Notes under the pieces: generated by a model
What the model saw: only the letters and a program-made list of their open reading frames with translations
What the model was told of the DNA's origin: nothing
Database searches by the model: none
Assembly: GCF_054482525.1 (NCBI RefSeq)
Contig: NZ_CM137006.1
Reading direction: 5' to 3' (one strand)
DNA: 64,000 nucleotides
Part shown: one piece after another, positions 40,070-47,045 of the stretch
Numbering within the stretch: the first letter of the stretch is position 1
How the letters are laid out: the number at the start of each line of letters is the position of its first letter
Made by a program: the position numbers and the translations under genes

Positions 40070-41476
40070 TTACTTGGAATTACTGTTGTTTTCGAACTGC
40101 TGCGTTAAGTAGCTGCTGGTGCTATTTAACGAGGTCATTAAAACGTCCAGCTGGGTAAATTGTTCTTTGTAGCGAGCGACCTGCGCATCAATGCGATCGC
40201 TGGCGGCGTTATAGTCTTTAGTTAACTTATTCAGGGTCTTACTAACGCCATCGGTAGCGGCTTTAATAATGCCCGTTGTCGAAAGCCAACTGGTCAGGTT
40301 GCTGCCGATGGTGGTCGTGATGCCGGTTTTTTTACCATCGCCAACAATCAATGCACCTACGCCGCTGGCATCTTTTTTCAATGCAGCGGTGAGTTTGTCG
40401 GCATCCAGCTCCAGTTTGCCATCGCTGGGATCGGTCGTGATACCAATCTGCGCCAACGTTTTATAGTTGGAAGAACTAACGGTATTACTCAGCATCGACT
40501 TCAACTGCGTCTGAATCGTCCGCAACGTGGAGTCGCCGAGCAGTGCGCCATTGCTAGAACTCTGGCTATCAGCTCCCGCATCTACGGCGGTGTATTTGGT
40601 CAGGCTGCTGAAGGTATCTATTAGCGAGTTATAGGCATTCACCCAGTCTTTAATCGCCGTTTGCGCTTTGGAGGTGTCCTGAGTGATGGTTAGCGTCTGG
40701 TTGCCCGTGGTGACATCGTTCAGGTTCAGGGTGATGTTTTCCAGCGCGTCGCTGATGGTGTTGCTGCTGTTCTCAATGGCGACGTTGTTGACCGTCAGCT
40801 GCGCATTCTGGGCGGCGACCGAGACCTCCATGCCGTTGCTGCTGGCACTGGCGTCATAGCCCATAAAACTTTGTAGCGCATCATCACCGCTAACCGAGAG
40901 CGTCATCGCATTATCAAGGCCGGTGTCATTCGATGTGACTGACAGACGATATTCACCGTTACCCACGTTAATGATGCTTGCGCTTACACCTGCTTTTGCG
41001 TTGTTGATGGCATCACGGATCCCGCTTAACGACGAGTTAGCCGCGCTGATATCAATGGTGATCGGCTCTTTGTCGCCGCCTTGTTGAATGGTGAGTTTGC
41101 TGTCGCTGGTGGCGATCGCCGTTTTCGTATCGTCTCTGGTGGTGCGCGTGGTCAGGGTTTGCGCCTGCGCCAGATGGGTGACACTGATGGTGTATTTCCC
41201 GGCGATGGCGTTACCCGCAGTGGTGGCACTGAATGCGGTGGTGCTGCTGGTGGTGCTGGTGGCGGAAAAAAGATCGGCTTTAGACAATGCAGTATTGGCG
41301 GTCTGGAAAGTCGTCAGCGCGCTTTTCAGCGTACCGTAGGCGCTAAGTTTAGCGGTAAACGACGATTGCTGATTTGAAATGGGGGTTAGCGTCGCTTTTT
41401 GCGCGGCGGTGAGGCTATCAAGGATTGAACTTAAATCCAGACCTGACCCGACTCCCAGCGATGAAATACTTGCCAT
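40070..41476 (-). CDS. fliD: Flagellar filament cap protein FliD
   Basis: 468-aa ORF. Confidence 0.95.
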   Translation of the reverse strand: MASISSLGVGSGLDLSSILDSLTAAQKATLTPISNQQSSFTAKLSAYGTLKSALTTFQTANTALSKADLFSATSTTSSTTAFSATTAGNAIAGKYTISVTHLAQAQTLTTRTTRDDTKTAIATSDSKLTIQQGGDKEPITIDISAANSSLSGIRDAINNAKAGVSASIINVGNGEYRLSVTSNDTGLDNAMTLSVSGDDALQSFMGYDASASSNGMEVSVAAQNAQLTVNNVAIENSSNTISDALENITLNLNDVTTGNQTLTITQDTSKAQTAIKDWVNAYNSLIDTFSSLTKYTAVDAGADSQSSSNGALLGDSTLRTIQTQLKSMLSNTVSSSNYKTLAQIGITTDPSDGKLELDADKLTAALKKDASGVGALIVGDGKKTGITTTIGSNLTSWLSTTGIIKAATDGVSKTLNKLTKDYNAASDRIDAQVARYKEQFTQLDVLMTSLNSTSSYLTQQFENNSNSK

Positions 41477-41519
41477 GCGATTTCCTTTTATCTTTCGACA
41501 CGTAAAACGAATACCGGGG

Positions 41520-41546
41520 TTATCGGCCTGAATTGCGCAAAGTTTA
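41520..41546 (-). promoter_or_regulatory. Sigma-28 (FliA) promoter of fliDST
   Basis: Minus-strand TAAACTTT, 11-nt spacer, GCCGATAA. Confidence 0.7.
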
Positions 41547-41638
41547 CGTTTAATTGTTTTTTTTAATAGCGGGAATAAGGGGCAGAGAAAAGAGTATTTC
41601 GGCGACTAACAAAAAATGGCTGTTTGTGAAAAAAATTC

Positions 41639-41665
41639 TAAAGGTTGTTTTACGACAGACGATAA
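41639..41665 (+). promoter_or_regulatory. Sigma-28 (FliA) promoter of fliC
   Basis: TAAAGGTT, 11-nt spacer, GACGATAA, about 75 bp upstream of the fliC ATG. Confidence 0.65.
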
Positions 41666-41741
41666 CAGGGTTGACGGCGATTGAGCCGACGGGTGGAAAC
41701 CCAATACGTAATCAACGACTTGCAATATAGGATAACGAATC

Positions 41742-43430
41742 ATGGCACAAGTCATTAATACCAACAGCCTCTCGCTGATCACTCAAAATAATATCAACAA
41801 GAACCAGTCTGCGCTGTCGAGTTCTATCGAGCGTCTGTCTTCTGGCTTGCGTATTAACAGCGCGAAGGATGACGCCGCAGGTCAGGCGATTGCTAACCGT
41901 TTTACTTCTAACATTAAAGGCCTGACTCAGGCTGCACGTAACGCCAACGACGGTATTTCTGTTGCACAGACCACTGAAGGCGCGCTGTCCGAAATCAACA
42001 ACAACTTACAGCGTGTGCGTGAACTGACCGTTCAGGCAACCACCGGTACCAACTCCCAGTCTGACCTGGACTCTATCCAGGACGAAATTAAATCCCGTCT
42101 GGACGAAATTGATCGCGTATCCGGTCAGACCCAGTTCAACGGCGTGAACGTGCTGGCAAAAGACGGTTCCATGAAAATTCAGGTTGGCGCGAACGATGGC
42201 CAGACCATCACTATCGACCTGAAGAAGATTGACTCTTCTACCTTGAACCTGACAGGTTTTAACGTTAACGGTTCTGGTTCTGTGGCGAATACTGCAGCAA
42301 CTAAAGCTGATTTAACCGCTGCTCAACTCTCTGCACCGGGTGCAGCAGACGCAAATGGTACAGTTACTTATACTGTCAGTGCTGGTTATAAAGAATCCAC
42401 TGCTGCAGATGTTATTGCTAGCATCAAAGACGGCAGTGCTCCGACTTCTGCAATTACTGCAACCATTAATAATGGCTTCGGTGATTCCAGTGCGCTGACT
42501 TCCAATGACTATACTTATGACCCAGCAAAAGGCGACTTCACTTACGACGTAGCTTCAAGCGCCAATAATACTGCTGCCCAGGTTCAGTCCTTCCTGACGC
42601 CGAAAGCAGGTGATACCGCAAATCTGAAAGTAACCGTTGGTACGACATCGGTTGATGTCGTTCTGGCCAGTGATGGTAAGATTACAGCAAAAGATGGTTC
42701 TGCATTATATATCGACAGTACAGGTAACCTGACTCAGAACAGTGCTGGCTTGACCTCTGCTAAACTGGCTACTCTGACTGGCCTTCAGGGCTCTGGTGTT
42801 GCTTCAACCATCACTACTGAAGATGGCACTAATATTGATATTGCTGCTAACGGTAATATTGGTCTGACCGGTGTTCGTATCAGTGCTGATTCTCTGCAGT
42901 CAGCGACTAAATCTACGGGCTTTACTGTTGGTACTGGCGCTACAGGTCTGACCGTAGGTACTGATGGTAAAGTGACTATCGGCGGGACTACTGCTCAGTC
43001 CTACACCAGCAAAGATGGTTCCCTGACTACTGATAACACCACTAAACTGTATCTGCAGAAAGATGGCTCTGTAACCAACGGTTCAGGTAAAGCGGTCTAT
43101 GTAGAAGCGGATGGTGATTTCACTACCGACGCTGCAACCAAAGCCGCAACCACCACCGATCCGCTGAAAGCCCTGGATGAGGCAATCAGCCAGATCGATA
43201 AGTTCCGTTCATCCCTGGGTGCTATCCAGAACCGTCTGGATTCCGCGGTCACCAACCTGAACAACACCACTACCAACCTGTCTGAAGCGCAGTCCCGTAT
43301 TCAGGACGCCGACTATGCGACCGAAGTGTCCAACATGTCGAAAGCGCAGATCATTCAGCAGGCCGGTAACTCCGTGCTGGCAAAAGCCAACCAGGTACCG
43401 CAACAGGTTCTGTCTCTGCTGCAGGGCTAA
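41742..43430 (+). CDS. fliC: Flagellin FliC, long allele (562 aa) with a non-K-12 central domain
   Basis: Conserved N-terminus (MAQVINTNSLSLITQNN...) and C-terminus (...QVPQQVLSLLQG) flanking a long Thr/Ser/Gly/Ala-rich middle region. Confidence 0.95.
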   Translation: MAQVINTNSLSLITQNNINKNQSALSSSIERLSSGLRINSAKDDAAGQAIANRFTSNIKGLTQAARNANDGISVAQTTEGALSEINNNLQRVRELTVQATTGTNSQSDLDSIQDEIKSRLDEIDRVSGQTQFNGVNVLAKDGSMKIQVGANDGQTITIDLKKIDSSTLNLTGFNVNGSGSVANTAATKADLTAAQLSAPGAADANGTVTYTVSAGYKESTAADVIASIKDGSAPTSAITATINNGFGDSSALTSNDYTYDPAKGDFTYDVASSANNTAAQVQSFLTPKAGDTANLKVTVGTTSVDVVLASDGKITAKDGSALYIDSTGNLTQNSAGLTSAKLATLTGLQGSGVASTITTEDGTNIDIAANGNIGLTGVRISADSLQSATKSTGFTVGTGATGLTVGTDGKVTIGGTTAQSYTSKDGSLTTDNTTKLYLQKDGSVTNGSGKAVYVEADGDFTTDAATKAATTTDPLKALDEAISQIDKFRSSLGAIQNRLDSAVTNLNNTTTNLSEAQSRIQDADYATEVSNMSKAQIIQQAGNSVLAKANQVPQQVLSLLQG

Positions 43431-43473
43431 TCGTCCTAACCTGATTAACTGAGACTGATGGCAACGCCAAATT

Positions 43474-43573
<100 letters not shown>

Positions 43574-43604
43574 ACATGAAGCGTAATTTGTCAGCAACGT
43601 GATC

Positions 43605-43628
43605 CCCCGCCACCGGCGGGGTTTTTTC
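43605..43628 (+). terminator. Rho-independent terminator of fliC
   Basis: 7-bp GC stem CCCCGCC/GGCGGGG followed by TTTTTT. Confidence 0.7.
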
Positions 43629-43749
43629 TGTCCGCAATTTACCGGTAACCCCCAAATAACCCCTCATTTCACCCACTAATCGTCCGATTAAAAACCCTGC
43701 AGAAACGGATAATCATGCCGATAACTCATATAACGCAGGGCTGTTTATC

Positions 43750-44469
43750 GTGAATTCACTCTATACCGCTGAAGGTGTAATGGATAAACACTCGCTGTGG
43801 CAGCGTTATGTCCCGCTGGTGCGTCACGAAGCATTGCGCCTGCAGGTTCGACTGCCCGCGAGCGTGGAACTTGACGATCTGCTACAGGCGGGCGGCATTG
43901 GGTTACTTAATGCCGTCGAACGCTATGACGCCCTACAAGGAACGGCATTTACAACTTACGCAGTGCAGCGTATCCGTGGCGCTATGCTGGATGAACTTCG
44001 CAGCCGTGACTGGGTGCCGCGCAGCGTGCGACGCAACGCGCGTGAAGTGGCACAGGCAATAGGGCAACTGGAGCAGGAACTTGGCCGCAACGCCACGGAA
44101 ACTGAGGTAGCGGAACGTTTAGGGATCGATATTGCCGACTATCGCCAAATGTTGCTCGACACCAATAACAGCCAGCTCTTCTCCTACGATGAGTGGCGCG
44201 AAGAGCACGGCGATAGCATCGAACTGGTTACTGATGATCATCAGCGAGAAAACCCGCTACAACAACTGCTGGACAGTAATCTGCGCCAGCGGGTGATGGA
44301 AGCCATCGAAACGTTGCCGGAGCGCGAAAAACTGGTATTAACCCTCTATTACCAGGAAGAGCTGAATCTCAAAGAGATTGGCGCGGTGCTGGAGGTCGGG
44401 GAATCGCGGGTCAGTCAGTTACACAGCCAGGCCATTAAACGGTTACGCACTAAACTGGGTAAGTTATAA
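43750..44469 (+). CDS. fliA: Flagellar sigma factor sigma-28 (FliA)
   Basis: 239-aa ORF with GTG start. Confidence 0.95.
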   Translation: MNSLYTAEGVMDKHSLWQRYVPLVRHEALRLQVRLPASVELDDLLQAGGIGLLNAVERYDALQGTAFTTYAVQRIRGAMLDELRSRDWVPRSVRRNAREVAQAIGQLEQELGRNATETEVAERLGIDIADYRQMLLDTNNSQLFSYDEWREEHGDSIELVTDDHQRENPLQQLLDSNLRQRVMEAIETLPEREKLVLTLYYQEELNLKEIGAVLEVGESRVSQLHSQAIKRLRTKLGKL

Positions 44470-44514
44470 CGTCAGTAAATGCCGCACTTTAATTTTGACT
44501 ACCAGGAGTTCTTA

Positions 44515-45066
44515 ATGATGGTGCAGCACCTGAAAAGACGGCCATTAAGCCGCTATCTTAAAGACTTTAAACACAGCCAGACCCATTGCGCGCATTGCCG
44601 TAAATTACTCGACCGCATTACCCTCGTTCGCGACGGCAAAATAGTGAATAAAATCGAGATTTCCCGCCTGGACATGCTGCTTGATGAAAATGGCTGGCAA
44701 ACGGAACAAAAATCATGGGCGGCATTGTGCCGATTTTGCGGTGATTTACATTGCAAAACGCAGAGTGATTTTTTCGATATTATCGGCTTTAAGCAATTTC
44801 TTTTTGAGCAAACTGAAATGAGCCCAGGTACGGTGCGTGAATATGTCGTTCGTCTGCGCCGTTTGGGGAATCATCTACACGAGCAAAATATTTCCCTCGA
44901 TCAGCTGCAGGGTGGTTTCCTTGATGAAATCCTCGCCCCGTGGCTGCCCACCACCAGCACCAACAATTACCGCATCGCATTACGGAAGTATCAACACTAT
45001 CAGCGTCAAACGTGTACCGGACTTGTGCAGAAATCCTCCAGCCTGCCTGCTTCTGATATATATTAA
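44515..45066 (+). CDS. fliZ: Regulator FliZ
   Basis: 183-aa product from ATG 44515 (MMVQHLKRRPL...). Confidence 0.92.
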   Translation: MMVQHLKRRPLSRYLKDFKHSQTHCAHCRKLLDRITLVRDGKIVNKIEISRLDMLLDENGWQTEQKSWAALCRFCGDLHCKTQSDFFDIIGFKQFLFEQTEMSPGTVREYVVRLRRLGNHLHEQNISLDQLQGGFLDEILAPWLPTTSTNNYRIALRKYQHYQRQTCTGLVQKSSSLPASDIY

Positions 45067-45153
45067 ATAAGAATAAGATGTAGCGGAGTTGTTTTTGTGT
45101 TTACAAACAATGGCTCTACACTGCAAACAGACATAACAACATTCGGGGTGAAT

Positions 45154-47045
<1,892 letters not shown>

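Follow-up and report, generated by a model that had tools for sequence, protein, structure and literature searches.

In flagellins, the conserved ends of the protein form the D0/D1 core, which polymerizes under the FliD cap and sets supercoiling, and the centre forms the H-antigen surface domains. Richness in threonine, serine, glycine, and alanine is typical of flagellin outer domains. Filament entries exist for EPEC H6 (7SQJ and 7SN7) and EHEC H7 (7SN4), and in both filaments the outer domains D2–D4 dimerize or tetramerize into an outer-domain sheath, which stabilizes an intermediate waveform and prolongs tumbling (PMC8931119). The sheath of the EHEC H7 filament is dimeric, whereas that of EPEC H6 is built of tetramers with a seam. 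Mutating N319 and N323 at the D4 dimer site of H7 disrupts the sheath and impairs motility, and Achromobacter joins H7 and H6 among the known sheath formers, whereas the H48 filament has neither the outer-domain sheath nor the tumbling behavior that it confers (PMC8931119).

For antigen H15, the type strain is E39a (GenBank AY249999.1; accession from PMC4753304). Two isolates from a Japanese aEPEC outbreak, 2022H047 and 2022H048, gave a PCR type of Hg15, and H15 antiserum from the Statens Serum Institut agglutinated them (PMC12175500). The term “H15” is absent from the text of PMC7018530, PMC7168681, and PMC8767331. The porcine ExPEC strain PCN033 belongs to serogroup O11 and phylogroup D, and its genome paper gives no H type; electron microscopy and swarming assays showed the strain to be flagellated and motile, and it carries a Flag-2 lateral system elsewhere in its genome (PMC4578781). 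Our search for a PCN033 H type in the searchable literature returned serogroup O11 only.

The DNA analyzed here, referred to as the window, is a stretch of 64,000 nucleotides that contains a flagellin gene. The 25 kb around this gene are 100% identical to PCN033, and also to strains SCU-102 and 19KM1776. An original prediction made from the letters alone had described the gene as a long fliC allele with a divergent central H-antigen domain. The gene and its conserved and variable parts are as follows.

41742 to 43430, plus strand: fliC, H15 allele, encoding the 562-aa flagellin that forms the filament subunit; intact open reading frame with an ATG start, product identical to RefSeq WP_000079748.1.
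41742 to 42257, plus strand: conserved N-terminal part, aa 1–172, predicted D0/D1 helical core; 97% identical to H6, with AlphaFold2 (AF2) helices at aa 2–127.
42258 to 43151, plus strand: central hypervariable region, aa 173–470, predicted surface-exposed outer domains and H15 antigenic determinant; 35% identical to H6, modeled with pLDDT of about 85–95.
43152 to 43427, plus strand: conserved C-terminal part, aa 471–562, predicted D1/D0 helices; 96% identical to H6.

The coordinates, plus strand, and ATG start of the predicted 562-aa reading frame were all exactly right. RefSeq names the product only as “FliC/FljB family flagellin.” Both helical domains of that family were found with Pfam, Flagellin_N (PF00669) at aa 5–140 (E = 4.6e-46) and Flagellin_C (PF00700) at aa 475–560 (E = 4.8e-32), together with the FliC domain (PF12445) at aa 349–466, and all three scored far above their gathering scores. 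The FliC protein of K-12 MG1655 (NC_000913.3) has 498 aa, making the window flagellin 64 residues longer, in line with the roughly 60 that had been estimated. In a global alignment to K-12 FliC scored in blocks of 20 residues, identity was 90–100% across aa 1–160, fell to 0–45% across aa 161–460, and rose through 55% (aa 461–480) and 80% (aa 481–500) to 100% across aa 501–562. The proposed conservation of both termini is therefore apparent at aa 1–160 and 501–562, and the possibility that the central region might be identical to the K-12 H48 allele was tested and is contradicted by these block values. With its three flagellin domains, its canonical locus (below), and a centre unlike that of K-12, the gene fits the original description.

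Composition followed the same division. The middle third of the gene, roughly 42250 to 43150, had been called rich in threonine, serine, glycine, and alanine, and these four residues indeed make up 53.8% of aa 170–470, against 35.5% and 33.7% in the N- and C-terminal parts, respectively (two-proportion test on the counts, z of about 4.5); over the whole K-12 protein they account for 42%. We set the variable block at aa 173–470 (298 residues), which corresponds to 42258 to 43151 of the window and nearly coincides with the predicted span. Within this block, GC content at third codon positions (GC3) was 35%, versus 59–70% at the conserved ends. We rejected this low central GC3 as something special to H15: K-12 fliC shows the same drop, from 57–65% at its ends to 26% in its centre, and it is thus a general property of E. 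coli fliC. Self-BLAST of the central region found no internal repeats.

We then compared the surroundings of the gene with the fliC locus of K-12. The features that define the locus in the window are the following.

40070 to 41476, minus strand: fliD, encoding the filament cap, divergent neighbor; open reading frame, annotated fliD in PCN033.
41520 to 41546, minus strand: sigma-28 promoter-like site for the divergent fliDST operon, TAAACTTT-N11-GCCGATAA; pattern match in a region conserved with K-12.
41639 to 41665, plus strand: putative sigma-28 (FliA) class 3 promoter of fliC, TAAAGGTT-N11-GACGATAA; pattern match.
43434 to 43627, plus strand: fliC 3′UTR, homologous to the K-12 small RNA FliX (b4827), with REP-like elements; alignment to K-12.
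43605 to 43627, plus strand: predicted intrinsic terminator of fliC, in which a T run follows a 7-bp all-GC stem; terminator scan, same stem in K-12.
43750 to 44469, plus strand: fliA, encoding sigma-28, downstream neighbor expected to drive fliC transcription; open reading frame, annotated fliA in PCN033.

The order of genes, with fliT-fliS-fliD on the minus strand and fliC followed by fliA-fliZ-tcyJ-dcyD on the plus strand, is that of the canonical E. coli fliC locus; the K-12 record has the same order in the opposite orientation. In keeping with membership in the FliC/FljB family, the gene occupies the chromosomal fliC locus: fliDST points away from it, fliAZ lies downstream, and a site matching a sigma-28 class 3 promoter precedes it. 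Conservation of the regulatory sequence is high, with 263 of the 265 nt between fliD and fliC identical to K-12. The spacer between fliC and fliA measures 319 nt versus 320 nt in K-12; the two align with one 1-nt gap and are mismatched at 14 positions. On the strength of established knowledge of K-12, the site at 41639 to 41665 is presumably an active promoter; a generic sigma-70 promoter scan gave no relevant match, which is no surprise for a sigma-28 gene. Downstream, the K-12 record annotates the ncRNA fliX directly after fliC, and Rfam placed REP-derived families at 43495 to 43582 of the window, with naRNA4 below its gathering score and ES036 at its gathering score. The FliX-like 3′UTR differs from its K-12 counterpart by a handful of substitutions, and the terminator tail is one T shorter. 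Overall, the gene shares with K-12 fliC (H48) the locus, promoter, terminator, FliX-type 3′UTR, and D0/D1 core, and differs from it in the centre and in length.

From these features, a conventional path to the filament can be outlined. FliA (sigma-28) would transcribe fliC from the class 3 promoter at 41639 to 41665, and the product would be exported via the flagellar type III apparatus and polymerize beneath the FliD cap. The conserved ends (aa 1–172 and 471–562) would form the D0/D1 coiled-coil core that serves polymerization and supercoiling and contains the TLR5 epitope, and the 298-residue centre would fold into outer domains that are rich in beta structure, lie at the surface of the filament, and define the H15 antigen.

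The original prediction had held that the serotype cannot be called from the sequence alone. This is correct as far as it goes, and comparison with typed genomes adds an assignment, namely H15. Across its full length, the gene matches fliC of 22 complete RefSeq E. coli genomes without a single DNA difference, and it is likewise 100% identical to fliC of PCN033. Serotype labels were present on four of the 22, all of them H15: “O7:H15 strain ST70” once and O166:H15 three times (JNE strains). Among 5,426 complete E. coli genomes, only 50 carry the central region at an identity of at least 98.4%, and no H label other than H15 was found on these 50. Of the other alleles that sensitive blastn aligned across the entire central region, the closest reaches only 66.6% identity, which marks the allele class as discrete and leaves a clear gap between H15, the best match among typed alleles, and the other H types.

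Because serotype labels on genomes may themselves be in silico calls, we sought a phenotypic anchor and found it in 2022H047 and 2022H048. The window fliC is 98.4% identical in DNA to the fliC of both isolates overall and 99.6% identical in the centre. Compared with 2022H047, there are 27 nucleotide differences, most of which fall within the conserved 5′ and 3′ ends, and four residue differences (V92I, P261S, E480D, and A547S), of which only P261S is central. The central region of the window gene therefore matches that of a strain agglutinated by H15 antiserum. In the described carriers of fliC-H15 (aEPEC O45:H15 2022H047, O7:H15, and O166:H15), the 562-aa length and the locus are the same, and no functional differences emerged.

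That the gene represents an H type not yet catalogued, and only a relative of known alleles, might be suspected from the lack of a name in the original prediction and from the unspecific RefSeq annotation. Such a reading is scarcely credible and is refuted by the complete identity to fliC of H15-labeled genomes and by the near-identity, with one central amino acid difference, to the serologically confirmed 2022H047; the exact 562-aa protein is, moreover, found on at least 1,000 contigs. Judged by its sequence, the gene is the known, catalogued fliC-H15, intact and in its normal chromosomal place. The call draws on labeled genomes plus one serologically confirmed outbreak clone.

A second H15 sub-allele was also observed, in strain 144 and 23 other genomes (L004, 3501 to 5189), which make up 24 of the 50 genomes carrying the central region. 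It is 98.3% identical in DNA and has 10 amino acid changes, eight of them in the variable centre, with S326N, inside the D4 motif described below, among them.

Whether this gene encodes the H antigen that the cell displays depends on other flagellins in the genome. In E. coli, certain H types are specified by loci other than fliC (PMC8767331), and the window shows only 64 kb of its genome; a second flagellin of the flkA, fllA, flmA, or flnA type, together with a fliC repressor, could in principle set the serotype while fliC is present and not expressed. We consider this very improbable. A second flagellin gene nearby was looked for with tblastn and rejected, as none was found in the 64-kb window, and megablast located only one fliC-like place in PCN033. 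Strains with near-identical fliC agglutinate as H15, and both promoter and reading frame are intact. We therefore favor, with high confidence, the reading that the gene is the H15 allele of fliC and encodes the single structural subunit of the peritrichous (Flag-1) filament in an E. coli that matches PCN033 over 25 kb.

That the protein would polymerize into a flagellar filament is suggested indirectly, by analogy with PCN033, which is exact over 25 kb and both flagellated and motile (PMC4578781). As PCN033 also has Flag-2, its published motility is no proof that this fliC alone is expressed; expression of fliC-H15 and its effect on motility are points that we infer. Gene identity, allele identity, locus, conservation of regulatory sequence, and homology were observed directly, and the gene, allele, and locus are all already known. 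The assignment provides a molecular H type, which would read O11:H15 if the strain is PCN033 or a close relative and can be used in epidemiological labeling; beyond annotation, it carries little weight.

Next, we examined how the H15 outer domains relate to those of flagellins of known structure. The best sequence match in the PDB, by phmmer, was the EPEC O127:H6 filament (7SQJ/7SN7), which aligned end to end with E = 3.5e-179, followed by EHEC O157:H7 (7SN4). H15 and H6 are 97% and 96% identical in the two conserved ends and share the GNLT-x-N motif of the D4 dimer site, whereas their centres are only 35% identical, H15 is 14 residues longer, and the antigens differ. Alignment to 7SN4 located the corresponding motif in the window.

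42708 to 42749, plus strand: YIDSTGNLTQNSAG, aa 323–336, candidate counterpart of the D4 dimer-site motif of the H7 and H6 sheath-forming flagellins; phmmer alignment to 7SN4.

In this alignment, which has low posterior confidence and many gaps in the centre, H7 N319 corresponds to N329 and H7 N323 to N333, so that both asparagines of the H7 Sn:Sn+27 D4 dimer are kept as identical residues, as in sheath-forming flagellins; H7 itself has 585 aa, and its D316 at the dimer site is replaced by Ser326. Across 31 aligned homologues, residues G328, L330, and T331 hardly vary, and identity to H6 rises from 35% across the centre to 51% over aa 301–345 around the motif. A word-indexed homologue search with the central region, in which 8,000 candidates were scored and 41 matches obtained, provided an alignment for AlphaFold2 and is no census. 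The monomer model built on the homologue alignment reached pLDDT of about 85–95 for aa 180–470. The top five Foldseek matches to this model were H7 (two chains, best E = 1.1e-36), H6, an Azotobacter vinelandii filament, and Achromobacter, with E-values from 1e-36 to 6e-24, and Salmonella FliC was found at E = 1e-18. Global TM-scores to 7SN7 and 7SN4 were low (0.33–0.39) for this elongated, multi-domain monomer model, which we attribute to inter-domain orientation; the Foldseek E-values and the ranking of matches were used in their place. Collectively, phmmer, AlphaFold2, and Foldseek point to outer domains homologous to D2–D4 of H6 and H7.

With homologous outer domains and both asparagines kept, the H15 filament probably carries an H6/H7-like outer-domain sheath, as far as sequence and model can indicate. 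The opposing possibility is that fliC-H15 forms a canonical filament, with outer domains that decorate it independently, no dimerized sheath, and no H6/H7-like effect on tumbling. The limited identity of the centre to H6 and the replacement of H7 D316 by serine would be compatible with such a filament, as would the difference in sheath geometry that already exists between H6 and H7 and makes geometry unpredictable from homology alone. We regard this outcome as possible and the less likely of the two: the full-length alignments to H6 and H7 span all outer domains, both D4-interface asparagines validated by mutagenesis are kept, the surroundings of the motif are the best-conserved part of the centre, and three known sheath formers are among the top structural neighbors. 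Within the favored, sheathed reading, outer domains that are about 35% identical to those of H6 and yet keep the D4 dimer motif could also assemble into a lattice that differs from both the H7 dimer and the H6 tetramer-with-seam forms. We consider a distinct lattice unlikely, though if true, it would add another structural form to the sheathed flagella of E. coli, and this form might have a waveform or tumbling behavior of its own. The comparison as a whole makes a modest structural prediction, in which H15 joins the H6/H7-like flagellins, a group with outer domains capable of forming a tumbling-altering sheath.

We also compared the wider fliC region with that of labeled H15 genomes. The window and an O166:H15 genome are identical over 5.2 kb, from 40125 to 45323, which takes in most of fliD and extends through fliZ into tcyJ, and the flanks of this block show ~10–20 differences per kb (about 1–2% divergence). 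An O7:H15 genome departs from the window at only one position between about 34000 and 43580, beyond which the two sequences diverge. Identical blocks whose boundaries differ between backgrounds argue for recombinational transfer of the fliC region. The pattern is a sequence signature consistent with an H15 allele that spreads along with stretches of fliD, fliA, and fliZ of differing extent, and fliC-H15 would thus move between lineages by homologous recombination. This agrees with published work in which H type and phylogeny are uncorrelated (PMC7018530). That recombination shuffles H antigens between E. coli lineages is well known, and the shifting block boundaries near this fliC are one example of it.

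Two minor observations concern the surroundings and the relatives of the gene. Between fliE and yedL, the window holds a gene for a 379-aa leucine-rich-repeat protein (32992 to 34131, plus strand) and an integrase fragment (32668 to 32808). Both are also found in the O7:H15 strain, whereas the O166:H15 strain lacks the leucine-rich-repeat gene, and its alignment to the window breaks at 32909 to 34126. Finally, members of the 90%-identity protein cluster that includes the window flagellin are recorded under Shigella sonnei and Kluyvera georgiana, and relatives of the central domain at 41–58% identity (P0018, P0027, and P0028) come from Kluyvera cryocrescens, Atlantibacter hermannii, and Yersinia rochesterensis. 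These Shigella, Kluyvera, Atlantibacter, and Yersinia records reflect either sharing of the outer-domain type across genera or mislabeled records.
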